Shown here in pieces: positions 4,960 to 57,660 of a stretch of DNA of 64,000 nucleotides. The DNA is taken from contig OX597824.1 in assembly GCA_951406725.2 (NCBI GenBank), forward strand, positions 43,276,001 to 43,340,000, given 5' to 3'. The position numbers were made by a program, and so were the translations under genes. Under the pieces are notes generated by a model. The model was not told the origin of the DNA and searched no databases. It saw only the letters and a program-made list of their open reading frames with translations. Within the stretch, counting starts at the first letter, position 1, and every line of letters starts with the position of its first letter. The DNA is from Octopus vulgaris. Taxonomy: Eukaryota.

Positions 4960-5504
4960 TTTTGGGGGAGGGGACTAATCGATTACATCGACCCCAATAC
5001 TCAAATGGTACTCATTTTAATAACCCCGAAAGGATGAAAGGCAAAGTCGACCCCTGTAGTATTTGAACTCAGAAGGTGAAGACGAACGAAATACCTATTC
5101 CTTTACTACTCACAAGGGGCTAAACACAGAAGGGACAAACAAGGACAGACAAACGGATTAAGTCGATTACATCGACCCCAGTGCGTAACTGCTACTTATT
5201 TAATCGACCCCGAAATAATGAAAGGCAAAGTCAACCTCGACGGAATTTGAACTCAGATCGGAGCGACGGGTGAAATAGCTATTTCTTTACTACCCACAAT
5301 GGGCTAAACACAGAGAGGACAAACAAGGACAGACAAACGGATTAAGTCGATTATAACGATCCCAGTGCGTAACTGCTACTTAATTTATCGAAAGGATGAA
5401 AGGCAAAGTCGACCTCGGCGGAATTTGAACTCAGAACGTAACGGCAGACGAAATACCGCTGAGCATTTCGCCCAGCGTGCTAACGATTCTGCCAGCTCGC
5501 CGCC

Positions 5505-5506
<2 letters not shown>
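4960..5506 (-). mobile_element. tRNA-headed SINE with internal ~180 bp tandem module (family A)
   Basis: Minus-strand head GGCGGCGAGCTGGCAGAATCGTTAGC. The repeated module GATTACATCGACCCC...GGATGAAAGGCAAAGTCGACC also occurs at 17.1, 32.7 and 50.1 kb. Confidence 0.8.
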
Positions 5507-5582
<76 letters not shown>

Positions 5583-13094: not shown

Positions 13095-14296
13095 GTTGTT
13101 TCACATGAAATGTCGTATTTTTAATTACTTGTTATTTCAGTCATTTAAATACTCAATTATGTATACCTTGCATTTAATTTTGACTCTTTTTCCTTCTCAA
13201 CAATATTAGTAGTGAAAATTCGTACCCACAAACCTTATGACAATGATAACAGCCAAACTTTGTTGAGTGATTTTCTGGTATAAATACAAACTGCGTCACT
13301 CTACCGCAGAAGCTCTACGGAATATCAAGTGAGCCTTTGGTAATGTTTTTTTATTTTACATCAGAACTGTTCAGAGTTGATTCCAAAGCTCTCTTACATA
13401 AGATGATAGCCTTGAAAATAAACCAAGGGGCAGGCCAAAATCAGTTATTCGGCATGATGGATTAAATGCTTTGGTTGAACGAAATCCGAGAACAAAGGTC
13501 CGAAAATTTACATCAGAACTCCAAACATCTCGCACAACTGTTTTTGGACACCTGTAAAAAATTGGAAAAGTCAAGAAAACAGATGGGTTTGTTCCACATC
13601 AACTGAACGAGATAAAAAAAATGCCTCGAAGTGTACTCCTTATTGCTTTCTCAACTAGAAAAAGACCATTTCTGCATCAAATCATTACTTGTAATGAGAA
13701 ATGGATACTCTTTTACAACAGCAGCAGAACAGGACAGTGATTACATGCAGGAGAGTCACCTAAACACTACCCAAACCCACCATTACATCCTACAAAGTTA
13801 GTGGTCACTGTATGATGGTCTGCGAAAGAAGTTATTCACTATTCATTTTTGCATCATGGAAAAACGGTAACGGCAACATCGTATTGATTGCATGCATGTG
13901 ATTTTGAAAAATAAGCAACCCAGACTACTGAACAGAGATGGCCCAATTTTGTTCCACAACAATGCACGTCCTCACACTCCACAAGCTCCTGTTCAAAAGT
14001 TGCAAAGCCTGAATTTTGAGATTTTGCAACATCCTCCCTATTCCCCTGATATCTCTCCTATTGATCATCACTTAAAACATTCTTAAATAGAGAAGAGGTA
14101 ATTGAAGCACTCGGACAGTTTATCATAGCAGAAGATGAATGTTTTTAAAAGATGAATTATATGACATAGAGAAACGTTGGGTAAACGTCAGAAATGAACA
14201 TGGCGCATACTTTGATTAAATAAATCAGTTCTCTAACACTTCTGAAACATTTTATTGTTACCTTTCAAATATGACATTTCACGTGAAACAGCCTTA
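13091..14296 (+). mobile_element. Full-length defective mariner (DD34D) transposon
   Basis: TIRs TTAGGTTGTTTCACATGAAATGTCGTATTT and AAATATGACATTTCACGTGAAACAGCCTTA with TA flanks. Motifs GFVPHQL, ITCNEKW, FHNNARPH, HPPYSPDISPID. Several stops. Confidence 0.93.
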
Positions 14297-14298
14297 TA

Positions 14299-15530
14299 CA
14301 GGGACTAGCATCATAGCATCATAATTTTGAAATATCTATAAAATCGTCAAAAGCTTGTTTATTTTTATGTTTTTTGATTTATTATTAGTGTTGCTTAACA
14401 TGTTTTACTAAAATTGTTGTTTCTTTTCAGATATCATCAGAAAAAGGTAATTAAAATTCATTAAAATGACAGATCTATCGGACTTTCAAAGAAGACAATT
14501 GGTTGGTGCTCGTATGGCAGTTGCTAGCGTAACAAAACAGCCGAAATCTTTGGTGTATGAAGAAGTGCTGTCTCGAAAGTAATGACAGCCTTTGAGAAAG
14601 AGGGAAAAACCTCCTCGTCGAAGCAAAACTCCGGAGGAAAACCAAAACTTTCAGATAGGGACCGCCGGATTCTTACGCGAATTATTAGAAAGGATCACAA
14701 ACGTACACCTCCCAAAATTACTGCAGAGCTTAATGACCATCACGAGAACCCAGTTTCCACATAAACTGTTCGCCGGGATCTGCACAAAGCCGGATTTCAC
14801 GGGAGGGCTGCAATCAGAAAACCACTACTTTCAAAAACAAACGTTGCAAAGCTTTTAGAGTGGAATAAAAACCTACAAAATTGGTCCCTAGCGCAGTGGA
14901 AGAATGTAATTTTCTCGGAAGAGTCATCCTTTACCTTATTTCCGACCACTGTTCGAGTATACATGTGGAGACAGCCAAAAGAAGCATTTGACCTAGACTG
15001 CCTTCTACCAACTGTTAAAAAACATGGGAGATGACCTGTGTTGATCTGGGGCTCTATATCTTGGAAATTCGCCGGCCCAATGGTTTCCATTCATGGCAGA
15101 ATAAATAGTCAAGACTATCTACGCATTTTATCTGATGAAATTCATCCTATGATTGCGGAACTGTTTCCGGAAGGAAACGCAATCTTTCAGGATGCTAATG
15201 CACCAATTCACACAGCCAAAGTTGTTACTAGATGACATGAGGAACATTCTAGTAAAGTTAAACATTTTATCTGACCACCACAGTCCACAGACCTCAATAT
15301 TATTGAACATTTATGGTGCCTTTTAAAAAAACAAATAAGGAGTCGATATCCTCCACCATCACCACAAAAAGAACTGGAGACTGTTTTAGCTGAAGGATGG
15401 ACAGAAATTCCTTTGGAAACGATTCAAATTTTGTACGAGTCCATACCTCGTAGAATTCAAGCCGTAATTACTGCCAAAGGCGGTCCTATCCCATATTAAA
15501 ATAAATTTGTTTGAAATTTTACAATCCTTG
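14299..15530 (+). mobile_element. Defective Tc1-like (DD34E) transposon
   Basis: Transposase from ATG ~14466: MTDLSDFQRRQLVGARMA..., GGKPKLSDRDRR, VIFSEESSF, FQDANAPIH, PPQSTDLNIIEHLW. Ends are TA|CAGGG and CCTTG|TA. Confidence 0.92.
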
Positions 15531-15537
15531 TATATAT

Positions 15538-15756
15538 TCTTTTACTTGTTTCACTCATTTGACTGCGGCCACGCTGAAACACCACTTTTAGTCGACACCA
15601 GGACTTATTCTGTGTAAGCCTAGTACTTATTCAATCGGTCTCTTTTGCCGAACCGATATGTTACGGGGACGTAAACACACCAGCATCAGTTGTCAAGCGA
15701 TGCTGGGGGGACAATTACACACGCACAAACGTACACACACACACACAGACACACAG

Positions 15757-15852
<96 letters not shown>

Positions 15853-16005
15853 CGACAGTCTTCTTTCATATTCCGTCTACCAAATCAACTGACAAGGCTT
15901 TGGTCGTCCCGATGCTATAGTAGAAGATACTTGCCCAAGGTTCTACACAGTGGGACTGAACCATGTAGTTGGGAAGCAAGCTACTTACTGCACATCCACT
16001 CCTGC
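15538..16005 (-). mobile_element. Full CORE-type SINE (family B) with internal microsatellite
   Basis: Reverse complement of the 40247-40685 copy, including the tail TTTACTTGTTTCA..TCATTTGACTGCGGCC. Confidence 0.85.
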
Positions 16006-16987: not shown

Positions 16988-17033
<46 letters not shown>

Positions 17034-17039
17034 GTGATC

Positions 17040-17250
17040 CTTTACACTAAAGGCACAGGGGCTGAAATTTGGTGGGAAGGGTGTAGTTGATTACATCGAC
17101 CCCAATGTTTCACTGGTACTTAGTTTATCGACTCCGAACGGATGAAGGGCAAAGTCCTCCTCGGCAGAATTTGAATTCGGAACGTGGTAACAGACGAAAT
17201 ACCGCTAAGTATTTCACCCGGCGTGCTAACCATTCTGCCAGCTCGTCGCC
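17040..17250 (-). mobile_element. Family A SINE between (TAA)n tracts
   Basis: GATTACATCGACCCC...GTGCTAACCATTCTGCCAGCTCGTCGCC. Confidence 0.8.
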
Positions 17251-17299
17251 TTCAGTATAATAATAATAATGATGATGATGATAATAATAATATTAATAC

Positions 17300-17347
<48 letters not shown>

Positions 17348-17974
17348 TAATAAGTTTTTACAGGTTTTGGCTCGAGGCCAGTAAATTTCGGGAAAGGTAA
17401 TTAGCCGATTAGTGGACACATCGACCCCAATACGTCAAATCAAACAGAACGTCAAATCAAACAGAATATTCCAGGTTTTTCATTCACATGAATCTTATAA
17501 TAAACAGTAAAATCAATAAATTTGAAAAACCTTGATAGGAAACTGCTAACTATAATCGTATTTTTAATATCATGTATTTATTTATTTCATTATTGATTTA
17601 ATAATGTGTATATGTGTTCGAGTATGGAAGAAATTGTACAGGGAGAGAGAGAGTGTGTGTGTGTGTGTATATGTGTTTGAAAGTAATTGTATGTGTGCAA
17701 GTGTCTGCACGCGCATGTGTATGCGTGCGACCATGCATTTGAGGGTTATTATGTGCATCGACATCATTCCTGACAATTTATTAAAATCAGTCAAGAGCAT
17801 GTTACGTCTATTCTTTTGTTGCTTTCAATTTGCTTTTACCTGCCGTCTTTTTTCATTTCTTTGATAAATTATTTCGAAACTTGTCTTATAATAGATTTTA
17901 TTCACTGTGATATGATCATAATATTTCTAGTTTGCAATAGAATATTTTTTCACACACACTTCTTTTCTGCTCCC

Positions 17975-21702: not shown

Positions 21703-23147
21703 TATCGCCCAATCTCACTCACCTCCCACATCATTAAAGTGTTTGAAAGAGTGTTAAGATCAAGGATAGCTGACTTCCTGGAGACCCACAAACTCCTAAA
21801 TGCAAATCAGCATGGCTTTCGCTGTGACAGGGACTGTCTAACACAGCTCTTACACCACATTGAAGATGTACTCAAAGCCTTGGGAACAGCTTCGAACTCT
21901 GACGTCATATATCTTGACTTCAGTAAAGCGTTCGACAGGGTAGACCATAATATCCTACTCTCAAAATTGGCAAATGTTGGAATCCGGGGAAAAGTTCTAC
22001 ACTGGTTTAAGTATTTCCTGGCGAATAGAATACAACATGTTGTAGTTGATGGAGTCCACTCAAGCCCAGCAAAAGTCACCAGCGGTGTTTCCCAGGGGAC
22101 TGTTTTGGGTCCGCTACTCTTCATAATTTACATAAACGACCTTTCCAGTGTCGTACATTACTGCAAAGTGAAAATATTTGCTGATGACACTAAGCTCCAG
22201 CAAATCGTCAATGAAGAAGCAGACCGAACTCAACTCTAGTCTGATCTATATGCCGTTAGTCAATGGGCAGACAGAAATAAAATACAACTGAATGAGGGAA
22301 AATTTGAGCTGATGCATTTTGGAAGAAATTCCTCACTAAAACAACCATACTCTCTTCCTTCAGGGGAACCGCTCACAGCCTCTAACAATATCAGAGACCT
22401 GGGTGTAGTTGTTGATGACGATCGCAGTTGGAGTGCACACATCAACAAGAAGGTCGATATAGCTCGTAGGATGAGTTCCTGGATCTTAAGAACTTTCCGG
22501 TCCAGAGAACAAGGTGTCATCATACCACTTTCTTCCTCCCTTGTACGGCCACACCTTGAATACTGCTGCCCACTGTGGTCTCCCCATACAAGACAAAACA
22601 TCTCCAGAATTGAGTCTCCCCAGAGGGCACTCACTAAACGAATTGAAGGCATGGCCGCTCTCGATTATTGGGATCGCCTTAAGCCTTGAAACTTTACTCC
22701 CTCCAGCATCGCCGTGAGCGGTACATCATTTGTACGATGTGGAGAATATAGCGCCAACTTTGCCCAAACGACCTTAACATTAGCTTCAAGGTTCATCCAA
22801 GACTGGGACCACGGGCCATACGACCTCTGCCCAGTTCAAGATCACAACATACATGTACACTGCAACATAATTTCTTTTCCTCAACAGGCCCTGCCCTATT
22901 TAACATTGTCCCGAAGAAGATCAAAGAGGAAAAGGATCCCATCAACTTTAAACGGAGTCTGGATAGATTTCTTCAAAGAATACCAGATAAGCCACCCATA
23001 ATTCGATACAACTCACCCAACAAGAACTCACTACTTGAACAAAACTTGCCTTAAACAGGATTCGAATAATCCTATCAGGTGGTGCTATTAAATTAGACAT
23101 GGCCTGGACCAATCTTGGTCGAAACATATCTAAGTTTATCTAAGTTT
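21703..23147 (+). mobile_element. 5'-truncated CR1/L2-group LINE (RT), copy 1
   Basis: YRPISLTSHIIKVFE, NQHGFR, YLDFSKAFDRVDH, GVSQGTVLGPLLF, FADD, RDLGV, VRPHLEYC. Ends in a 3' stem-loop and a (TATCTAAGTT)2 tail. Confidence 0.95.
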
Positions 23148-23222
23148 ATATATATATATATATATATATAATTGTGTGTGTGTATGTATGTATGTATGTA
23201 CGTATATATCATATACATACAT

Positions 23223-23576
23223 ATAAGAAAATGAGATGAAAAAAGAATAAGAAAGGTTTTATTATGAACTTTATTAGCTTTCAGATGCAGTGGACTCATA
23301 GTTGAGTGGCTGAATAACAACCTATGCCTTCATCGGTGCCTCGAATATAGATTTAATCTAATTACCTTTGGATATACGCTTTTTTATATACATCAGTACT
23401 AACTTTGTGTCTGGGAATACTTTTTTCTAAATATAATGCACTTCATATTCGTCGCTTCGATGAAGTTATAGGATGTTATTCTGGCAGTCAAATATGAGTC
23501 TACTGCACCCAATAGCAGAAACGGCTCTAAGCTAAGGAAGTTCATTTTTTTTTTCATTGTCATCTCATTTTCTTAT
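23223..23576. repeat. Degenerate foldback element with hammerhead remnants in both arms
   Basis: ATAAGAAAATGAGATG pairs with CATCTCATTTTCTTAT, and GCAGTGGACTCATA pairs with TATGAGTCTACTGC. Plus arm 23454-23532 reads gct TCGATGAAG...AGAAAC ggctc TA agc. The minus arm retains CCGATGAAG. Confidence 0.65.
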
Positions 23577-23689
23577 TGCTGCTATGTACTCGTCTAACAC
23601 TTCATTCTAAAGCATACGTACACAGAGTTTTACCACAGCTCATTAGTCTCGCAATGCCTAAGTGAAATGAATACGCACGCACACACACA

Positions 23690-23784
<95 letters not shown>

Positions 23785-24163: not shown

Positions 24164-25572
24164 GAAAGAGTGTTAAGATCAAGGATAGCTGACTTCCTGG
24201 AGACCCACAAACTCCTAAATGCAAATCAGCATGGCTTTCGCTGTGACAGGGACTGTCTAACACAGCTCTTACACCACATTGAAGATGTACTCAAAGCCTT
24301 GGGAACAGGTTCGATCTCTGACGTCATATATCTTGACTTCAGAAAAGTGTTCGACAGGGTAGACCATAATATCCTACTCTCAAAATTGGCAAATGTTGGA
24401 ATCCGGGGAAAAGTTCTACACTGGATTAAGTATTTCCTGGCGAATAGAACACAACATGTTGTAGTTGATGGAGTCCACTCAAGCCCAGCAAAAGTCACCA
24501 GCGGTGTTCCCCAGGGGACTGTTTTGGGTCCGCTACTCTTCATAATTTACATAAACGACCTTTCCAGTGTCGTACATTACTGCAAAGTGAAAATATTTGC
24601 TGATGACACTAAGCTCCAGCAAATCGTCAATGAAGAAGCAGACCGAACTCAACTCCAGTCTAATCTATGTGCCGTGAGTCAATGGGCAGACAGAAACAAA
24701 ATGCAACTGAATGAGGGAAAATTTGAGCTGATGCATTTTGGAAGATATCCCCTCACTAAAACAACCATACTCTCTTCCTTCAGGGAAACCGCTCACAGCC
24801 TCTAACAATATCAGAGACCTGGGTGTAATTGTTGATGACGATTTCAGTTGGAGTGAGTGCACACATCAACAAGAAGGTCGATATAGCTCGTAGGATGAGT
24901 TCCTGGATCTTAAGAACTTTCCGGTCCAGAGAACAAGGTGTCATCAAACCACTTTTTTCCTCCCTTGTACGGCCACACCTTGAATACTGCTGCCCACTGT
25001 GGTCTTCCCATACAAGACAAAACATCTCCAGAATTGAGTCTCCCCAGAGGGCACTCACTAAACGAATTGAAGGCATGGCCGCTCTCCATTATTGGGATCG
25101 CCTTAAAGCCTTGAAACTCTACTCGCTCCAGCGTCGCCGTGAGCGGTACATCATTTGTACGATGTGGAGAATATAGCGCCAACTTTGCCCAAACGACCTT
25201 AACATTAGCTTCAAGGTTCATCCAAGACTGGGACCACGGGCCATACGACCCCTGCCCAGTTCAAGATCACAACATACATGTACACTGCAGCATAATTTCT
25301 TTTTCTCAACAGGCCCCGCCCTATTTAACATTGTCCCGAAGGAGATCAAAGAGGAAAAGGATCCCATCAACTTTAAACGGAGTCTGGATAGATTCACTCA
25401 AAGAATACCAGATAAGCCACCCATAATTCGATACAACTCACCCAACAAGAACTCACTACTTGAACAAAACTTGCCTTAAACAGGATTCGAATAATCCTAT
25501 CAGGTGGTGCTATTAAATTAGACATGGCCTGGACCAATCTTGGTCGAAACATATCTAAGTTTATCTAAGTTT
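24164..25572 (+). mobile_element. CR1/L2-group LINE RT, copy 2 (tandem duplicate)
   Basis: Near-identical to 21745-23147. ORF 24152..24805 contains GVPQGTVLGPLLF and FADD. Confidence 0.95.
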
Positions 25573-25637
25573 ATATATATATATATATATAATGTGTGTG
25601 TGTATGTATGTATGTACGTATATATCATATACATACA

Positions 25638-25991
25638 TATAAGAAAATGAGATGAAAAAAGAATAGGAAAGGTTTTATTATGAACTTCATTAGCTTTCAG
25701 ATGCAGTGGACTCATAGTTGAGTGGCTGAATAACAACCTATGACTTCATCGGTGCCTCGAATATAGATTTAATCTAATTACCTTTAAATATACGCTTTTT
25801 TATATACATCAGTACTAACTTTGTGTCTGGGAATACTTTTTTCTAAATATAATGCACTTCATATTCGTCGCTTCGATGAAGTTATAGGATGTTATTCTGG
25901 CAGTCAAATATGAGTCTACTGCACCCAATAGCAGAAACGGCTCTCAGCTAAGGAAGTTCATTTTTTTTTCATTGTCATCTCATTTTCTTAT
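25638..25991. repeat. Duplicate of the 23223-23576 foldback element
   Basis: Part of the tandem duplication. Confidence 0.7.
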
Positions 25992-26279
25992 TGCTGCTAT
26001 GTACTCGTCTAACACTTCATTCTAAAGCATACGTACACAGAGTTTTACCACAGCTTATTAGTCTCGCAATGCCTAAGTGAAATGAATACGCACACACACA
26101 CACACACAAACACACATATATATAGGATCCAATCCAATTGACAACGTAGGTCAAGTAGGTACTGTAAATCTAGGGTGAATACTTGATAATTGTAAGCACC
26201 TGTATACGCCACATAGTGGCAGGGGTGAGAGGGTATATATCAAATAAAATCAAAACCAGAATATATATATATATATATA

Positions 26280-27029: not shown

Positions 27030-27194
27030 GGCGCAGGCGTCGCTGTGCGGTAAGAAGCTTGCTTCGCAACCACATGGTTCCGGGTTCAATCCCACTGTGT
27101 GGCACCATGGGCAAGTGTCTTTTGATTTAGCCTCGGGACGACCGAAGCCTTGTAAGTGGATTTGGTAGACGGAAACTGAAAGATGTCCGTTGTG

Positions 27195-27269
<75 letters not shown>

Positions 27270-27530
27270 GTGTGTGTGTGCGTGCGCGTATGTGTATGTG
27301 TGTATTTGTGCATACGTGTGTCTGCGTTTACTCCCGACCATCACTTGACAACCGATGTTGGTGTGTTTACGACCCTGTAACTTACAGTTACCAAACGAGG
27401 CCGATAGAATATGTATCAGGCTAACAAACAATAAGTCCTGCGGTCGATTTCTTCGACTAAAAACTCTTTAAGGTGGTGCTCCTGTATGGCCGCAGTCAAA
27501 TAAGTGAATCAAGTAAAAGAAGAAAAGAAT
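27030..27530 (+). mobile_element. Full family B SINE
   Basis: Head, internal (TG)n, and tail TGGCCGCAGTCAAATAAGTGAATCAAGTAAAAG. Confidence 0.9.
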
Positions 27531-28231
27531 CTATGTATCATACTTGACGTATAGATGCTGTTGACAGGCAGGTAGCGAAGATTTTGTCGGAGATGAAATC
27601 TCTTACAGATAAGCTGTATTCAAAAGCGCGATATATATGACAGAGTTGCAAAAAGTCGTCCCGACAGTGGTTAAGGAAGACTGCCGGATGAATTTCGGCT
27701 TTCTTGGACCTCGTTAATGACGTGTATCGGTATATGCAAAATTTTATTTCGAGCTAAAGCCGTAGCATCTTGCTTGTCAAAGATGTATACACCTTAAGCA
27801 TGAAATGTAGATGGCTATTTTCATTTGCGAATATCGGATTTTTACGCAGTGCGGTGGCTATTCGCAATATCCGTGAATGTATTACTCACTGTTTCCTTTA
27901 TTGGAAGCAATAAATTTTGATTAAGCTGCTAGTATCCATCACTCACAAGCCTCAGGAGACCTAATGCACTCGATGTTCTTGATGGCCGCTGCTGGTACCT
28001 GTTATTGAACGTTGATATGTTCGCGTCTTTTTGCTAGATGTTTACAATATCAGGACTTTAACGCACATGGATTCAAGCAGGATTGCACCTAAATCCTTAT
28101 TTCTACAACATCGGAAAGTTGAACTGTGAACTTTTATGCTTTTTTTTCGTCTCTCTTTTCATCTTATTCATTTAATCCTGTCCCCTTTGTCGTCATTTCA
28201 TTAATCTATACCCTTCTCATTTTCCCTATTT

Positions 28232-32609: not shown

Positions 32610-32650
32610 CCCGCGAATGTCTTAAAATTATCATTAATTAATAAAATAAG

Positions 32651-33045
32651 AGGCGGCGAGCTGGCAGAAACGTTAGCACGCCGGGCGAAATGCTCTGCAG
32701 TATTTCATCTGCTGCTACGTTCTGAGTTCAAATTCAGCCGAGGTCGACTTTGGTTTTCATCCATTCGGAGTCCGTTAAATAAGTACCAGTTACGCACTGG
32801 GTTCGATATAATCGACTTAATTCATTTGTCTGTCCCTGTTTGTCCTCTCTGCGTTTAGCCCCTTGTGGGTAGTACAGAAATAGGGATAATGTCCGTCTTT
32901 ACTTTCTGAGTTCAAATTCGGACGAAGTCGACTTTGCCTATTATATTTTCAGGGTCGATAAAATAAATACCAGTTGAGCAATGAGGTTGATGTAATCGAC
33001 TTACCTTCTCCACCGAAATTCCTGGCTTTGTGCCAAAAATTGAAA
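32651..33045 (+). mobile_element. Family A SINE with duplicated internal module
   Basis: GGCGGCGAGCTGGCAGAAACGTTAGCACGCCGGGCGAAATGC... Confidence 0.85.
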
Positions 33046-34139
33046 CAGTTTTTAATTAATAAAATTGATGAAGGTCTATCCTGTCCATAAAGGTAAACTT
33101 ATGCTATATAAAAAGCCTGTTCATAGAATTATCCGAGCATTCTTAATAACAAAAAGAGCCTTTTTGATGAGGCAGATGAGTATAAATATTTTATCAATTT
33201 TAATGTGTTGATATACTTGTGTAGCCCCAGGTCAGGTTTAATTGGACTGATCTATGACATACAGTAGTTAAACAAACGGCAACACTCATCCCATGTGCCA
33301 TCTTTTCACTGTAGACGACGAATGAATTTCTACGTGAGACTTCGATCAACTCAAAATATCAGCCAAATTCCCTTCAAATTTCAACCTACTCTCTGAAAAA
33401 TAAATGAATATATTGATTAAAGTAGATTTGTATAAAATTTATAAGAAAATTAAGAGAAGCCAAAACTGGAATGCCGGTTGGACGATGACAATTGAATACA
33501 AAGAAACTAGAAATGTAGATTTCTCCAGACATATTTTGAACACGATGACTATGCAATGATAAATTCTGATTATTGTAATGACCAAATATAATATATTATT
33601 ATGTGTTGAATCATTAAGAACAAGAATCATTAAAAACAGGAAACAAACAATCGACTTTTCATCATGGACCGCACCCAACCATTTTTTTTTCTTATTGGTA
33701 GATGTCAGATTCTAAAAACCCGGAGAGCTACAATATAAACAAGTGCCATAATGATCAATAGAGAAAAGATAAATCATCGAATGAGTCGAACATGACGCTA
33801 TGTAGTTTATCATACTCAGACTTACACGTATTTGCCAGAAAGATAAAAGTAGGTCAAACCAATAGCTTCATTCAAGACACACGAATATCTGACGAGAATA
33901 TCCCAAAAAGGAGAGGGAAAAAACACGAAATAATGCACCTTTGAATTTCAAAATCCATCTGCGGGGATCCGAAAGCAGTCCTGCTCATCCTTACAACAGT
34001 TATCTCTGAGGCCATGCGTATTACAAGCCCTTTAGTGAGGTGAGCCAAAATAAAAGTAGCAGTTCTGCTCTCTACTCCGATACAATATATATATATATTT
34101 ATATAGTTAGAATTTAGAAAAAAAGACGAAGACGGTGTG

Positions 34140-34187
<48 letters not shown>

Positions 34188-34419
34188 AAATTAAGAATAA
34201 AATCTTTATAAGAAATTATCAGTAGTTAGCGTGAAAAACCACGTAAGAGAAAAAATCTGTAAATTTTTCCACTTTGAAAATATTTATTTATATTATATAG
34301 AGGGTACTATTATTCATAGGTACCGCACGCTAGAGGGACTTTTGCAGTCAAAACTACTAAAATAAACAAATTGTACCGAATGCAAAACTTCAAAGCAAGT
34401 TATTTAAAAACAGAATTTA

Positions 34420-34483
34420 GTTACATATCACCTGTGATTTCGCAATCAATGCAGAATATGCATTCTATGCTCTTCAGTGCAAC
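34420..34483 (-). ncRNA. Type I hammerhead ribozyme (left arm)
   Basis: Exact reverse complement of 34522-34585. Confidence 0.85.
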
Positions 34484-34521
34484 GAACTCAAGATATATAA
34501 GAAAAAACATGTCTTGAGTTC

Positions 34522-34585
34522 GTTGCACTGAAGAGCATAGAATGCATATTCTGCATTGATTGCGAAATCACAGGTGATATGTAAC
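34522..34585 (+). ncRNA. Type I hammerhead ribozyme (right arm)
   Basis: gttgca CTGAAGA gca tagaatgcatattctgcattgat tgc GAAA tcac ag gtga TA tgtaac, with an AUA triplet. Confidence 0.88.
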
Positions 34586-34835
34586 TAAATTCTGTTTTTA
34601 AATGACATGCTTTGAAGTTTTGCATTCGGTACAATTTGTTTATTTTAGTAGTTTTGACTGCAAAAGTCCCTCCTAGCGTGCGGTACCTATGAATAATAGT
34701 ACCCTCTATATAATATATATATATAAATTAGTGTACAATTTTATATATAGAAGAGGTGAAAGGGCAGTTAAAGCTCAAACCACGAATAAGAGTAATTTCA
34801 AAGAGAATGAAAAATAAAAACATTTCAATAGTTAT

Positions 34836-34903
34836 CCTTATACTCGAGTTTCTGCATTAACGTGCAAATAAATTAATTTGCCATCCTTGCTTCTTCAGTA
34901 AGG
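34836..34903 (-). ncRNA. Type I hammerhead ribozyme, canonical core
   Basis: Minus strand reads cctta CTGAAGA a gca aggatg gcaaat taattt atttgc acgttaa tgc a GAAA CTCGAG TA taagg. Confidence 0.9.
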
Positions 34904-35269
34904 GCGCTAAAATTAATGCATATTTACGCAACACAGAAGATACCCGTTCTATCCTTATACATTATAACTTTTCAAATCCAAAAGAGAGGAAGGAGGATTT
35001 GCATTTTTATTTTGCTAAGTTTTTCACTCCTGGTCATAATAATATATTATATTTTAAAATTTCCCTCTACTAAATACTTTATATTTCTTTGTTTCTCTCT
35101 ACATCTTCAACAAACTTTTTAACCATGTAATTTCCGTGTTCATATATTTAACATTTATCTCTTTCTCTCTCTTTCACACACACGCACACTCTTTTACTCC
35201 ACCTCCCATTCACTCTATTTCTCTAACTATAATATAACGGGCGAACGAACAAGCAGGTTATTACGTATA

Positions 35270-35559: not shown

Positions 35560-36692
35560 TAAGCAAAGAATAAATGTCAACATTTTCATTACATAGTATA
35601 TGTTGCGAATATAGTGTCTAAATTATTAAAACATTAGTCTCATATATTTGCTACAGCCTAACGAAATACCAGCAGTGAGACTGAATGGTATGGAAAGATG
35701 ATTTGTCTGATGGACCAAGACCAGGAGAGTATGGAGGATGAAACAAAACTTCCGTATTTAGTGCCTTAATCTTTTCGTGGGAGGCTTTGCCAATATGTTG
35801 TATTGCGCAATCCTGTAATAGTAACACTCCTTTACGATGGACCGATATTGGGTGAACTCTGGCAAATTTGTGTGCAATGCTTGCACTTGATATCTCTTTT
35901 CTGCATTAACTGTTTTCTTTTAGTTTCACACTTCACGATAGATCACACCATTCATATCCAACCACACGTAGAGCAAAACATTTTTTAGAGATATTGTCCT
36001 AGCTTGAGAATGGATTCTTCTTTTTCAATGGATGCTAGCGATTTGTCGTTTTCTTGAACATGATTAAGGGAGCACACATTTTTATCACTTGTGATGATGC
36101 TACCAGGGAAATGTTCGGTAACAAGGCTCTTCATTTCAAAGATGAACAGAGGGTAAATTTTTGGTTAAGCTGAGAATCAATCAGATGACGAAATACACAG
36201 ATCGAATTTAGACACTTTTCCTTGTTTATGAAGTATTTTATTTTCAAAGTGTGACTTGAATTGACTGTTCTACTAATTCTCGTGCAATTTGCTTTCTGGA
36301 TTTTCCTCAATACGGCTTTCAGAATTTCATTATTTACAATGCTTGGTCATTCAGAACAAGGGAATTTTCACGAGCGAAACTGGCCAAACCATTTTTAGTA
36401 AGCCCGAATACTTAAAGCTTCATGTCCATAGATAGAACGAATATTTCTTGCGCAACTATTCCCTAAGATCCCTTCTTGAATTCATACGGTATACGATGTC
36501 AGATAAGGCTATGACCTAAACTGATTTTAAAATAGTAAAATCGATTCGGATGTCACCACTATAGTGTAAAGTAATCGGCGATAAGACAGAAACATTTTAG
36601 ACTGTAAAAGGTAACGCTTATTTTACAGTTAGTATTGAAAAAAAATACGTCAAATCGACTCAAAATGGGACAGCGTTTTCCTTTTAACCTAA
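35560..36692 (-). mobile_element. Highly decayed mariner-like transposon
   Basis: Mariner-type TIR (reverse complement TATTAGGTTAAAAGGAAAACGCTGTCCCATTT) at ~36663-36693 and an IITSDKNV (ITGDEKW-like) remnant. Confidence 0.5.
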
Positions 36693-37689: not shown

Positions 37690-38530
37690 GTTGGCGTTTG
37701 GTAAACATTGGGGATAGGCAAATATCGGTCCTAATCATCGGGATGATTCATAGCAGTGACTTTGGTGCAGGCGGTGCAGAGTAGCAGCTGGTGCTACGGT
37801 GGTATATCTAGGGTGTCGGCAGTCAGAGACCTGCAACCTCTGGTGACAGCAATACGATAAATCGTATTTCTTCTTGATGGATACTGCGGTTGTTGGAGGA
37901 TATGAAGTTTTACGCAGAGGCAAAGCTGGCAGCTGGGGGTGCCGGGTGAATATGGTGGTGCTCTGTCGACAATAGTCTACTTGATACTGGGTATTTCATC
38001 ACGGAGATCACGGAATCTCCAGTGAAAACGAAAGAGGGATGTAGAGTTCTCTCTGTCCTTGAATCTGAACGAGTGCATATGCTGGGAGTATCATATGAGT
38101 GCATATGCTGTCATACCTGTATAGTGCCCAGTAATGCCATCGGATGGTGTAAGGATTGCTCTGTATACTGCGATCCTTGAGAGACTACTAGAGGGTATAT
38201 GGTGGGATTTTAGCAGTTGCAGGTTAGGTTGGGGTGGTGTGGGTGCATTTTTACATCAGTTGATGCGTGCGATCTAAGATGCGATGTTGTCTAAGTAAGA
38301 GTAGCTCACCAAGATATTATGGGGTCTGAAGAGTTTGTGATACTTATGGCCTTTGGGAAGTGTTTCTTAATTAACGACAGGAAGCTTCTAGCTACGTTGG
38401 TGGAAACTTCTAAGCTGAAAGCGGGGTTATACCATCCTAATTTTCCTTCTCCAAATCCCAGTGGGTTGAGGAGAGGGTGTTTGGGGGTTGTTTAGGGGTT
38501 GTCCACATAAGTGAGCTTCGCAGTAAACCC
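37690..38530 (-). mobile_element. Penelope-like element C-terminal remnant
   Basis: Minus strand [36 protein letters not shown]...VSYSYLDN matches the PLE linker motif WFNPP..S..V.TN...FL.LI.KHFP. A later QLCLCVK Cys motif is present. Confidence 0.8.
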
Positions 38531-38534
38531 ACTC

Positions 38535-38679
38535 CATGGTTCTGGGTTCAGTCCCACTGCGTGGTACCTTGAGCAAGTGTCTTCTACTATAGCCTCGAGC
38601 CGACCAAAGCTTTGTGAGTGGATTTGGTAGACGGAAACTGAAAGAAGCTCGTCGTATATAAATATATATATCTATGTGT

Positions 38680-38724
<45 letters not shown>

Positions 38725-38950
38725 TGTCTGTGTGTCTGTGTGTCTGTGTGTCTGTGTTTGTCTCCCCAACATCACTTGACAACCGATGCTGGTACGTTTA
38801 CGTCCCCGTAACTTAGCGGTTCGGCAAAAGAGACTAGTAGTATAAGTACTAGGCTTACAAAGAATAAGTCTTGTGGTCGATTCGCTCGACAAAAGGTGGC
38901 ACTCCTGCATGGCCGCAGTCAAATGACTGAAACAAGTAAAATAAATAAAA
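38535..38950 (+). mobile_element. Family B SINE
   Basis: GGTTCAGTCCCACTGCGTGGTACCTTGAGCAAGTG...AAATGACTGAAACAAGTAAA. Confidence 0.88.
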
Positions 38951-40022
38951 GAATATATGAACGTCTCATCTATTACAAATTTATATGGAAAATACCTGTA
39001 AGGTTACCATCCAAATCGAGACTACAGACAGAAATATTGATAATCAAGAGATATACAATGAGGAGATATACAACAATAAGTACCTTAAATCAGAGTTAAT
39101 CAACCGCTGCGAACTGTCTGCAGTTTATTAGCTGATTCAAACTTAATGCGTATAACTGTGTTCTTTTTGAGTTCTCCTCACACAGCTTATGATAATGGCC
39201 ATTTAGGCCAGAAAAATATTGAATATAACTGAACGTGTTCCTTTACAAAAATACATATACATATATCTATAATAATATATGCGAAAGCGAATGTCAGTGT
39301 GTCACTGCGTCACACTTTTTAACTTTACTCCTCGACCCCCTCTTACATTATTCATTGTCACTTCTAGTATTCTTCATTCTCGTTTTTTTCTTCCTCCTAG
39401 CATTTTGAAAATATATTTCTCTAAATATTATAATTCCCAAAATAAACAATAAAAAAATCTTTCTCTAAATATTATAACTGTATGAAGTGATTTAACCATA
39501 ACACGAGCTTCATAACCTTCGGAACTGAAGTACTTATTGAACTCACTCTCTCATACAATATTACCTCTCATAACTCTCTACCATAAAAATGTTGGTAACT
39601 TAGTATTTTTTCAGATATTAATAAAATTTGTCGGACCTATTTTCATGCCGTCGGCCGTCAGAGCTATGGAAATTTAGCGCACTCCGACTACATGAAAATA
39701 AATTTGACTAATTTTGTTATTACCTTAAAAAATACTAAATTTCAAATATCTTTATGGTTTAGAGCACTCCCAAACCATGAAAATCACACTTTGAAATAGT
39801 GTTTAGCGACAGCGGTGTAATTTTCTTTCAAACAACGGACAGGAGATTGAATACGTACCAGCTACTACAAATAATTGTTTGTACGAAAAGTAAGGCCCTA
39901 TGTGCACCAAATTCTCTTTAAATAAAATGGCGGCGGAAGAATTGTCGTTCAACTCATAAAAGCTGATTTATTGCTGCCTATGGCCAGCTATATGTTGTTG
40001 TTCAAGAGTAGGGAATGGAAAC

Positions 40023-40246: not shown

Positions 40247-40402
40247 GTGGCTGTGTGGTAAGTAGCTTGTTTACCAACCACATGGTTCCGGATTCAGTCC
40301 CACTGCGTGGCACCTTGGGCAAGTGTCTTCTACTATAGCCTCGAGCCGACCGAAGCCTTGTGAGTGGATTTGGTAGACGGAAACTGAAAGAAGCCCGTCG
40401 TA

Positions 40403-40457
<55 letters not shown>

Positions 40458-40685
40458 CGTGTGTGTGTACTGTGTGTCTGTGTTTGTCCCCCTAGCATTG
40501 CTTGACAACCGATGCTGGTGTGTTTATGTCCCCGTTACTTAGCGGTTCGGCAAAAAGACCGATAGAATAAGTACTGGGCTTACAAAATGAATAAGTCCCG
40601 GGGTCGACTTGCTCGATTAAAGGCGGTGCTCCAGCATGGCCACAGTCAAATGACTGAAACAAGTAAAAGAGTAAAAAAGAGTAAG
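40247..40685 (+). mobile_element. Full family B SINE
   Basis: GTGGCTGTGTGGTAAGTAGCTTG...CACCTTGGGCAAGTG...AAGTAAAAGAG tail. Confidence 0.9.
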
Positions 40686-49004: not shown

Positions 49005-50064
49005 TCAGTATACGTTGTACATTTTTTACCCTGTCATTGTTCATTTACAAAATATATTTCTTTTATAAACACACACACACGGCGTATATGAAATCTACTC
49101 AAAAGGCTTTGGTTAGCCCAGGGTAATACCAGAAGACACTAGCACCTTGGGCTAGTGGGACTAAACTTGGACCACGCAATTGGGAATCAAACATCTTAAC
49201 ATAAGGCCACACCTACGCCTTAAATATGTGTGTATGTGTGTGTTTGTGTGTGCTGTAACCACAATAGCATACATCTGTCATTCTCGCACATGTAAATATC
49301 AAAAGTATGGATATATATGTACACATACACGCACACCTGGATACATGTTCTTCAAGATAAACGCGCACACATTCATAAGTACACATAAATACATGAATGT
49401 ACATATTCACGAACACATATCTGTACATGCATCCTAAACACTACGCGTGCACACGCGTGTACAACAGGCGGTAACTCACATGTATTCGCCCACACATACA
49501 CTCATACAACTGATAAACACGCAGCTGATATACACAGCTAACATATACATCCCATGTATTCGCGCACATGAGTACACGGCCAAGAAGCACCCACGCACAT
49601 ACGTACACACCCTCGCAAACATACACATACGCATCAACGAGTTGATGTCATCAGCTCTCACTCACACGCCAGTTTACACACGCGCGCACCCGCCACACTC
49701 GTACACGCATAACTAATACACATAATCATCACACTCCCACAAATACTCACACATACTCTGGTATACACACATAAATCCACGGTAGCCATGTATTTGATAG
49801 CCCATAATCCTTTCAAAGTCCGACCAGACTGCAAGGCGCCACCAGCTTACTGTCCAGTATCGATCTCACTTCGAGCAACACCATATGAAAAGACTTGACC
49901 AAGAACAACTTAGTTTCCTATAACCGTCTTCGACTTCCTGCATTTCTTCATTCCGTTAACTGAGTTCAACGAACTAGTTTTCTGTAAGAAACCTTAGAAA
50001 CTTGAAGTCACATAGAACTGAATCAAACTGTTTTAAATGATAGTAATCATAATAATAATCATTT

Positions 50065-50235
50065 CTACTAAAGGCACAAGGCCTGAAATTTGGGGGCAGG
50101 GGACTAGTCGATTACATTGACCTCACTGTTTCACTGATGCTTAATTTAACGACCCCGAAAGGATAAAAGGTAAAGTCGACTTCGGCGGAATTTGCACTCA
50201 GAGCATAGCGGCAGACGAAATACCACTAAGCATCT
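50065..50235 (-). mobile_element. Family A SINE fragment
   Basis: GGCACAAGGCCTGAAATTTGG...AAAGTCGACTTCGGCGGAATTTG. Confidence 0.8.
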
Positions 50236-50269
50236 TACCGTCTTGATAACAATAATATTAATAATAAAG

Positions 50270-54899: not shown

Positions 54900-57660
54900 G
54901 ATGGTCATGTTGCCAGTTTGGATAATAAACACCACACGCACTTGCTTCAGCTTTATTTTATATTCATCGCATTTCGGCCAGAGTTCTTTCGTCACGCTTC
55001 TGTGACCTCATCAGTGGTCCTTTGCTTTCTTCTTTCTTTTTTGTGTGTCTTTTCTTACTAATGATCAGCCATTTTGTATTCCTATTGTGTCTTTATTCGC
55101 GAATGCGTATAACCCTGTGTGCCTATGCTTAGTGTGTGGGGGGATGTGCTTGTATTATCAGTATCTCCTGTTTATACACGTTCGTGTAATTTGTCTTTAT
55201 TTATTTTGCACATTTGTTTTTCTTTTCTTTCTTTTTTGTTTCTTTTTTTTATTCAATTCAATTTATTTTATTTTGTTAATGTATATAGTTATTTAATTCC
55301 ATTCATTTATCTGTGTATTGTATTATATTATATTCATATTGTTATCAGTTTATGGGGATCTTATTCTGTCATAGGTTGTGGTGTGGTGGGGTGTGTGCTA
55401 GTGTTGCATTCTAGTTTCCTATTCAGGCTAGGTTTATCTTCTATTATGTGTGTAGCTTCTGTAAATTGTCTGAGCGTTGCGTCTGTTCTATGTGTGGACT
55501 AGATTTTAACTTCTATGTTGTTGAGCGAGTCCCCGTGTTCCTGCTCGGCGGGCTGGTACAGAACCGATGAACTCTTCTCTTCCTTAAGTTCCCTCCGATG
55601 GTCATTTACCCGCTCTCCTATGCTCTGTGCTGTTTCCTCTACGCCTACGTACGTCGTTGTCTTGTTACTGCACCGTCCCTCTGTACATCTTATACTATAG
55701 ACTGCATCCCTGGCTTTACACCTACTAAAAAGGTTCTACCGATTAGGGATTTGATAGGGTTGCCTGGCCTTTCTACAACTTTAATTCTTAGCTTAAGTTT
55801 GTTTAGGGCCATTCTGAAGCGGTACGCCAGTTCGCCTCTTAGGGTGGTGTCGACGAACATGACACTGTGGTATTTGTGGTTATCATGCCATGAGTTGGCC
55901 TTCCTTTTTTCTTCTCAGTCTTTTCAATGGTGTTCCATGACTTGCTCCTATAGAATGGGCAAATCCCATTCCGATCGTTATGTATGATAGTTTCAAATTT
56001 CCTCATAGCTCCTTTATATACTCTGATCCTTTCTGTTTGGCTGTATCCTGAGAACTGCATGCTTTGAACGAAATGATGTATGTGTCTCTGTAACTCCGTA
56101 GGGTCGCACATGCATGACACATTTCTCACTACTCTGATGAGGTCTTCTATCAATATATTGAATTTGGCATTGTTCGCGATACTGAGTTCCGGTGGATCAG
56201 GTATTTGGAGGTCATAGGTTTGGCATAGTGTGAATGAAGGATTCGGGTTTTAATATTCACAGTTTCCAGCCAGAGTTCTGTATCTAGTACTGGTAGTCTA
56301 TGGCTGGAGTGTTTCTTTCGAAGGGTAGTCTATCGTAACCTTAATACTCTAGCGGATAGAGTTAGCTATTTGATGGATGCTCTCCACAGTATTAGTTTCT
56401 ATTTCTATTTCAAGAGTACTCTCTTGTGGGAGTACCTTTACCACTACCTTGATATCATTGACATAGCAGAGTACATGTTCATGAGTATGGAGTTCTGTAT
56501 CAGGCGTTCTTTAAGCCTTCTCTCCCACCATACCATGAAAAGTTTGGCCACATCACCAGTGATACTAACCCTGTTGGCTGTCCCCTCATCCTAGGCGTAT
56601 GCATTGTTGTTAAACTTAAACGTGTGGCCTTTTAGGGCAACTCTTATACTAGCTCCTAGTGCATGTGCGATCATTTTCTTTACTTGATATTCGTTTGCGG
56701 GAGTCCGTATGGTTCTGGTCCATCCGATCCATCTCTCTATAGGGGTCTTCCTAGCCATAGAAGTAATTGTGGGTGGTCTACCACTTACACATCTACTGGA
56801 GTAGAAACTTCTAAGGTAATGTTTGTCTATATATTCATTGTCATATGTCAGTCTAAGTAGGAGGCCCAGTTCCTCTATGTCGACATTGTGGAACTCCACT
56901 TCGCTCTCGTTGATCATCTCCATGCACTTCTCCACCGCAAAATCTACGTCGACAGATGGGTATAGGGATAGCACATGTATACTACCCACTACATCCTGTC
57001 AGGTCGCAGGTGTTGTTACAGTAGTTGATCCTGCTGAGGAGATGTTCCGTGCTGTCACAAACATCAGGTGACATCCGGCTTATGGGGTGTATGATCATTG
57101 AGAGGAAGTAGGAGATCCTGTAGTTGCTAGCGATATTCGCTCCACAGACTGACTGGTCTTGTTGGTGGTCCCGCCACAGGATCAGTGGTTACTTTGTGGT
57201 CCTTGCGGAATCCATACAGCTTCGGGATGTTGTTGTTCCAGGCTAGTAAATTGTTGGCTATGCGTTTATGTGGTCCAAGAACAATTGTCCACATCATCAT
57301 GTGAGCGTTGAGGACCTTTTCTCTCTCCTCATGCGCTCGCAAAGTTGTTACTTTCATATTGGCGATGTGAGGTTGCATTACCTGGATGTAGTTCAGCAAG
57401 CTGTCTATCGACATTCTGCCGGACTTATATGTGGGGAGGCATACCACCTCTCCGTTCATCCTGAGCTGCATGAGCTTAGGTAGGCAACACGGTATATTCC
57501 CGGGTTGTTGGGCATCTGTCTTATTTTTTATCTTAGTGTATAGTTCTAAAATCTGTCAAAGTTTGGTCCTAGGTATAGTGAATTGTGCTTCCATGTGATC
57601 ACTAGTATATCTTGTGATGCAGACCCTTTTGTTAAAGGGTAATGTTGTCGGGTAAATACT
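54900..57660 (-). mobile_element. Defective Penelope-like element: RT, GIY-YIG endonuclease and 3' hammerhead
   Basis: RT motifs IPKLYGFRKDHK..PPTRPV, GSIHVLSLYPS, FKFNN...G..S.TGDVAKLFM, LPVLD and LIRVVRNVS. GIY-YIG at 55720-55405: C..AVYSIRC..C...YVG..ET..SIGERVNDH...EATHI....PSLN. Multiple stops and frameshifts. Confidence 0.9.
54976..55019 (-). ncRNA. Hammerhead ribozyme in the PLE 3' region (pLTR)
   Basis: Minus strand reads gacca CTGATGA g gtcac agaagc gtgac GAAA G aa C TC tggcc. Confidence 0.85.

Follow-up and report, generated by a model that had tools for sequence, protein, structure and literature searches.

The palindromic locus at positions 34143 to 34725 contains two copies, joined head to head, of the 3' end of a very abundant repeat, the end that bears the hammerhead. 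They were likely laid down by one insertion of a Penelope-like element (PLE) into (TA)n, and both ribozymes are predicted to be inactive; we hold this reading as a whole with good confidence. Positions are those of the window, that is, the whole stretch of 64,000 nucleotides analysed. The family is likely to belong to the PLEs. As for the locus itself, it is probably a retroelement stump that is inert, and the family may be the more important of the two.

The full palindrome spans about 427 bp, with arms at 34290 to 34496 and 34509 to 34716 that differ by three substitutions and one indel. A repeat search of the window paired 34333 to 34496 with 34509 to 34672 (164 nt, 98%, spacer of 12 nt) and gave an outer arm pair at 34281 to 34333 and 34673 to 34725. 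Global alignment of the reverse complement of 34290 to 34492 with 34513 to 34716 showed 201 identities, two mismatches (34398/34607 and 34401/34604) and one gap, and there is a further G.T mismatch of the arms at 34494/34511, adjoining the spacer. The search and the alignment together bear out the description of two arms of about 205 bp with few differences that was given in the initial annotation. A recent origin had also been read from the similarity of the arms; we have dropped this estimate of age because there are just four differences and palindrome arms may homogenise.

The left-hand, longer copy lies on the minus strand at 34186 to 34509. Contig depth identifies it as 324 nt of the 3' end of the repeat, 5'-truncated at 34509 and likely to be a PLE pseudo-LTR. 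At its 3' end is a (TA)n tract (34143 to 34185; 34143 to 34184 with 21 copies according to TRF), which is the likely insertion target. The long copy can be divided, from its 3' end and on the same strand, into an optional 3' extension at 34186 to 34221, likely a PLE 'tail' (25-36 nt) and recognized from contig loose ends and a depth step; a 3'-terminal part of the element at 34222 to 34289, found on the left side only, which includes the most abundant part of the family; and the left palindrome arm at 34290 to 34496, delimited by the repeat search and the alignment. The left side had been noted to run about 100 bp further than the right, as far as (TA)n, and contig depth shows this 104-bp extension to be element sequence. 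The 12-nt spacer (34497 to 34508, minus strand) is not foreign DNA: family contigs continue through it to 34509, and it represents the 5'-most element bases, kept in the long copy only. The right arm (34509 to 34716, plus strand) is an inverted copy with a 5' end 12-13 nt shorter, and its other end is an internal TATATA continuous with (TA)n. The short (TA)n at the right junction, at 34713 to 34725 by sequence, means that (TA)n adjoins both insertion junctions at this one locus, and a target-site duplication is indistinguishable inside it.

Two further observations concern the sequence in and beside the palindrome. There is a TATAWAWR match at its centre (34494 to 34501, plus strand), kept in the long copy only, and helix I of the right hammerhead follows about 28 nt downstream of this match; an RNA starting at the match would be without the antisense arm. 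The stricter TATAWAWR form occurs outside the microsatellites of the window 31 times on the plus strand and 23 times on the minus strand, and the central match is therefore weak. Directly left of the element, between two TA tracts, is a 39-nt non-repetitive stretch (34104 to 34142) that is possibly another tiny microsatellite insertion.

Both arms carry an identical 64-mer hammerhead, at 34522 to 34585 on the plus strand and at 34483 to 34420 on the minus strand, each pointing outward and each recognized by descriptor scan and folding. The type I core (CUGANGA, GAAA and NUH), helices I to III and an open helix I are all present. C3 of the core is at 34528 in the right motif and 34477 in the left, and the cleavage nucleotide A17, in an AUA triplet, is at 34579 and 34426, respectively. 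In the right hammerhead, helix I is made up of 34522 to 34527 and 34580 to 34585, the core of 34528 to 34534, and helix II, with a 3x3 internal loop, of 34535 to 34563; GAAA follows at 34564 to 34567, then helix III at 34567 to 34578 and A17. The core of the left hammerhead (34420 to 34483) runs from 34477 to 34471. A17 is 240 nt from the outer 3' end, which places the hammerhead near the 3' end of the element.

When both strands of the 64 kb window were scanned with a strict and a relaxed descriptor, each matched just these two sites, confirming an outward-pointing, canonical-core hammerhead on each strand as first annotated. Block-wise dinucleotide shuffles gave means of 0.035 (strict) and 0.09 (relaxed) matches, with at least one match in 7/200 and 18/200 shuffles, respectively, and two matches in 0/200. 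Because the two real matches represent one duplicated motif, chance is fairly put at about 4-9% per window. The motif escapes Rfam, which returned no matches at the gathering score. In E-value mode it returned 26, mostly from miRNA-hairpin models on the palindrome and none from hammerhead models; a miRNA identity was rejected, as these are generic hairpin scores. Within the family, the free core position N7 is A or U, and G10.1 is replaced by A in approximately half of the family depth (among 40 of 162 variant rows listed). With its AUA site and a helix III of 5 bp, the hammerhead is a variant of interest for cleavage.

Public sequencing runs were searched with 34186 to 35260, and 20 of the 24 runs listed hold part of this sequence, under four organism labels. 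We compared contigs of four runs at 85% likeness: X1 (organism A), X2 (organism B), X4 (organism C) and X9 (organism A, guessed to be RNA). The family was found in all four, under three organism labels. Summed contig depth, which is no copy number, is 16,860-96,346 over the arms in X1, 443,200 at 34222 to 34257 and 98 in the near-unique bin 34942 to 34977. The depth profiles of X2 and X4 are shaped as in X1, and the peak bin is 34222 to 34257 in 4/4 runs, i.e. the profile is 3'-biased. The data suggest that the family is very abundant, probably with copies in the thousands.

The contigs also locate the ends of the element. Loose ends are found at 34221/34222 in X1, X2 and X4 and at 34189/34197 in X9, and the depth in X1 steps from 142,088 to 443,200 between the first two bins. 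The two loose-end positions imply two 3' ends, 25-36 nt apart, in the manner of a PLE-type 'tail'; the outer end (34186 to 34197, from the window and X9) is less sharply fixed than 34221/34222. On the other side, loose ends at 34507 to 34510 in X2, X4 and X9 show that other copies continue beyond 34509, so the left copy is itself 5'-truncated. Record 28 of X9 spans 34275 to 34509 with three differences and one gap and then runs 70 nt further 5'; the element is at least 394 nt long, with its 5' side open. X9 holds 51 family contigs in all, including a near-identical longer member, and these are informative at the level of the family, not of the locus or strand. TA tracts aside, blastn (word size 7) found no other family copy in the window. 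Loose ends also occur at 34254 to 34256, beside the depth peak at 34222 to 34257, and many copies may be just about 35 nt long.

Inverted joints recur in the family. Besides this locus there are at least 12 distinct joints of left arm to right arm, with single-contig depths of 22-61; among those listed, eight are in X1 and seven in X2, three being common to both, and none is in X4 or X9. Left out of the count are right-flank joints, a deletion on the same strand from 34221 to 34346 and an opposite-strand joint (34513 to 34638) judged ambiguous; no partial tandem (direct pLTR) is among the joints listed. The sides of the joints are short (21-44 nt, at 85% likeness), which weighs against our reading, as does the lack, among 32 of 4,998 pieces listed, of a contig across the centre of this locus and of an empty insertion site. 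Twelve joints are more than the alleles possible at one diploid locus. Their breakpoints are scattered, which suggests that each insertion likely makes its mirror half afresh. In two of the 12, the break is no more than 1 nt from the junction at this locus (p about 0.005 under a uniform model, post hoc). The initial annotation had seen here one long copy together with a truncated, inverted one, in the inverted-pLTR geometry known for PLEs. Both points stand: the left extension is element sequence, the depth peaks at the 3' side and the 3' end is double and tail-like, while the inverted joints recur in contigs and the arrangement is already in print.

The same data weigh on three other origins for the palindrome. 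An assembly or chimeric-read artefact at the locus is very improbable. Among 32 of 4,998 pieces listed, no contig bridges the centre of this locus (34509/34510), and assemblies are known to have difficulty with the inverted structures of PLEs (PMC8557442, accessible part). The arms differ at four sites, however, the flanks are unmirrored and there is no N in the window; at 34401 the left arm departs from nearly all of the family depth whereas the right arm matches it, and like junctions are found in two independent runs. We give a slimmer chance to a single copy that was later made palindromic by host break repair, apart from retrotransposition. On general grounds the short spacer and the junction microhomology would suit fold-back repair too, but the mirrored part ends inside the element and includes no flank, and similar junctions are found across the family. 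The near-perfect palindrome with TA on both sides might also be read as a MITE or foldback DNA transposon of palindromic form, which would have a TA target duplication and inverted repeats at its termini. This origin is largely refuted and barely credible, since the most abundant part (34222 to 34257) is unmirrored on the right, the depth is asymmetric, breakpoints differ between copies and other copies continue beyond the centre.

For the preferred reading, an insertion by a PLE, we propose the following sequence of events. The GIY-YIG endonuclease of the element would nick the TA tract, and the reverse transcriptase would copy uncleaved element RNA from the tail end, halting once 324 nt had been made, at a point 32 nt upstream of the core of the ribozyme. 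The end of this new DNA would then snap back on 1-4 nt of microhomology 12 nt behind it and copy itself for about 207 nt, until the internal TATATA paired with the opposite side of the cut TA tract. Alternatively, the second nicked strand would prime its own cDNA, and both cDNAs would then be joined. We lean somewhat towards snap-back because of the short loop and the TA microhomology at the right end. The site 34398/34607 speaks for two templates rather than snap-back, since the arms have different alleles there and each allele is common in the family. A lizard PLE studied in vitro uses mainly uncleaved RNA as its template, does not require ribozyme cleavage, and cleaves and extends both target strands (PMC11167929). 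Snap-back self-priming has been proposed for PLE inversions (PMC3846280), and the accessible parts of PMC8557442 and PMC3846280 state how PLEs form inverted copies as an open question.

PLEs of the endonuclease-bearing kind are defined by one ORF that encodes a telomerase-like RT and a GIY-YIG endonuclease. No RT or endonuclease ORF joined to the family was found by pattern scans of metagenome and viral contigs (0 loci). The palindrome had been described as having no ORF, and in agreement with this the longest frames in the copies are short, stopping near the ribozyme. A decayed, frameshifted RT remnant lies elsewhere in the window, at 55400 to 57600 on the minus strand. By eye and from its motifs, it resembles a Penelope-type element that has a C-terminal endonuclease. 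Pfam gave no relevant match to this remnant, and the Atlas clusters nearest to it are RT-domain proteins (0.86-0.87), a lead only. Its DNA is not similar to the palindrome and carries no hammerhead, and it was rejected as the parent of the palindrome.

It is also conceivable, but unlikely, that the repeat is a non-autonomous hammerhead element lacking its own ORF, either SINE-like or a non-LTR retrozyme, mobilized in trans by a PLE and inverted by the same route. Consistent with this, no ORF was seen and the type I hammerhead has a predicted dimer use; retrozymes have also been proposed to stem from PLE pLTRs (10.64898/2026.07.22.740005; PMC7229834; accessible parts of both). As described in those parts, however, the monomers of retrozymes measure about 170-400 nt and are arranged head to tail in tandem, and TRF shows no such array here. 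Among 15 of the 32 joints listed there is no goes-back joint, and the length of at least 394 nt, the open 5' side and the 3'-biased depth also argue against a retrozyme.

Folding predictions bear on the state of the ribozymes. For one copy alone, the predicted cost of folding into the hammerhead is +2.3 to +5.1 kcal/mol relative to the minimum-energy structure. The two hammerheads had been called intact, which holds for their sequence; it does not hold for the fold, as the hammerhead is not the minimum-energy structure of the monomer. Helix III by itself gives no fold, while its pairing with a second copy is predicted at -11.2 kcal/mol. The minimum-energy structure of the homodimer is the exact double hammerhead in 3/4 fragment lengths (28/28 pairs, 22/22 core bases free), and the double hammerhead is lost in the remaining 1/4 dimer folds (6/28 pairs). 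This suggests that the hammerhead likely works as a dimer, as other metazoan type I motifs do (PMC4209133). It would belong to the parent element, in which two sense copies in tandem would form the cleaving dimer.

Each strand of the palindrome has one sense copy of the hammerhead, with its own antisense arm transcribed before it. Given the predicted dimer use, the ribozyme would need a second sense copy. In the full hairpin, the penalty on the hammerhead fold is +101.5 kcal/mol on either strand, and read-through RNA is predicted to form a duplex of about 205 bp that buries the ribozyme and leaves it dead. That the hairpin sequesters the ribozyme, as claimed at the outset, thus stands as a folding prediction. 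The penalty on the active fold varies with the start of the RNA, from +9.3 kcal/mol at 34480 to +85 kcal/mol at 34426, and an RNA would be expected to escape sequestration only if its start lay no more than about 20 nt from the palindrome centre. The duplex is a plausible candidate substrate for ADAR or Dicer.

A hairpin kept by the host for regulation, either as an editing-controlled ribozyme switch or as a source of endo-siRNA, would make use of such a duplex, and we regard it as scarcely tenable. In its favour, the predicted duplex is near-perfect, octopus shows very high hyper-editing, and the editing of PLEs in lizard is heavy (PMC5625713, accessible part). Against it, no host exon was found among 150 of 242 filtered ORFs, in which the clearest Pfam matches are transposon domains and the remaining matches are few and below curated cut-offs. 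There is also no sign of selection; the arm differences lie outside the ribozyme, but four differences have no power.

A palindromic Harbinger repeat is a main source of the dsRNA and hyper-editing load in frog. By comparison, we put forward as a doubtful proposition that this PLE family makes a near-perfect hairpin at each insertion and is a main source of the unusually high dsRNA and hyper-editing load of octopus, and that the cluster of junctions marks the RNA start and decides between the inversion models. If true, the junctions would be a natural data set for snap-back against two-primer models. In an octopus genome, the self-made hairpins could help to account for the high editing load. 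More generally, an abundant young family with many junctions makes models of PLE inversion testable from sequence alone. Porath 2017 (PMC5625713, accessible part) reports octopus to be exceptional both in its hyper-editing and in its dsRNA potential, and Penelope to be heavily edited in lizard. Among the listed public runs holding part of the family, none is labelled as RNA; in X9, the A>G and T>C counts are similar to those of the DNA runs, and as counts from contigs they are uninformative on editing.

The window holds several other repeats, and its repeat landscape would suit an octopus. Two more multi-copy repeats are in the right flank of the palindrome, at 34758 to 34951 and 34982 to 35133, and the first of these also shows opposite-strand joints (34760 to 34802, three runs). 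A 1.96-kb LINE fragment is tandem-duplicated at 21745 to 23703 and 24164 to 26116 on the plus strand (96.8% identical; RVT_1, E about 1e-24). Tc1/mariner-like transposase fragments (DDE_3, HTH_Tnp_Tc3_2) are at 13871 to 15496 (plus strand) and 35654 to 35905 (minus strand). There are also two SINE-like families, one at 4972 to 5527, 17015 to 17349, 32627 to 33034 and 50036 to 50253, with a 184-bp tandem at 4972 to 5436, and the other at 15535 to 16005, 27033 to 27535, 38527 to 38959 and 40247 to 40683.

We found no description of this hammerhead-bearing family in the openly searchable literature; Repbase and Dfam are outside that search, and the family may already be catalogued. Several described systems resemble it in part. 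The non-LTR retrozymes of Cervera and De la Pena 2020 (PMC7229834) are likewise short, ORF-less and high-copy with a type I hammerhead, but in the accessible part of that source they form head-to-tail arrays, whereas none is seen at this locus and the copies are instead 5'-truncated and inverted. The minimal metazoan PLE hammerheads (Cervera and De la Pena 2014, PMC4209133, accessible part) share the type I form, the predicted dimer use, the long helix II and the dual motifs, which in metazoan PLEs lie on opposite strands 100-700 bp apart. Helix III in those hammerheads is absent or 1-2 bp long and there is an extra base after A9; here, in contrast, helix III occupies 12 nt and there is no extra base.

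Within the PLEs, the Hydra clade has a (TA)n target in 26/27 listed families, a hammerhead near the 3' end and an octopus member, and Naiads share the (TA)n preference with it (PMC8557442, accessible part). In its protein, the clade is marked by RWK and DKT motifs, a CxCX5C linker and an endonuclease that lacks CCHH. The present family resembles the clade in the (TA)n at both junctions of this one locus and in a canonical-core 3' hammerhead with a self-complementary helix III and a loop of 1-3 nt. It differs in its triplet and helix III, which are GUH and 3-4 bp in 26/26 rows of the accessible part of File S2 of PMC8557442 and AUA and 5 bp here, and in a helix II that is longer and has an internal loop. 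Placement in the Hydra clade, drawn loosely from the (TA)n flanks and the long helix III, is a lead to which we give somewhat less than an even chance. Identity with Hydra-1_Obim was rejected: the sequences differ by eye, and three motifs of 12-15 nt gave 0 matches in the accessible part of the PMC8557442 supplement.

The closest parallel is with inverted, 5'-truncated pLTR insertions. Arkhipova et al. 2013 (PMC3846280) describe a pLTR joined head to head to a shorter inverted one, a tail of 31 bp being present at one side; the inverted head-to-head arrangement of PLEs is also drawn by Craig et al. 2021, and Penelope-13_HM has an inverted 5'-truncated copy with a hammerhead on each strand (PMC8557442); the PLE tail is 30-40 bp long and is found at one end (PMC8557442; PMC11167929). 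In the accessible parts of PMC3846280 and PMC8557442, such insertions share with this locus the shorter head-to-head copy, the one-sided tail, the AT-rich or microsatellite target, arms of about 200 bp and a TATATA legible both ways near the 5' end. This locus differs in that both copies are short, with the terminal repeat alone left and no ORF, and in that a target-site duplication is not discernible. The arrangement is thus one already described for PLEs, and this family and locus are probably a further case of it.
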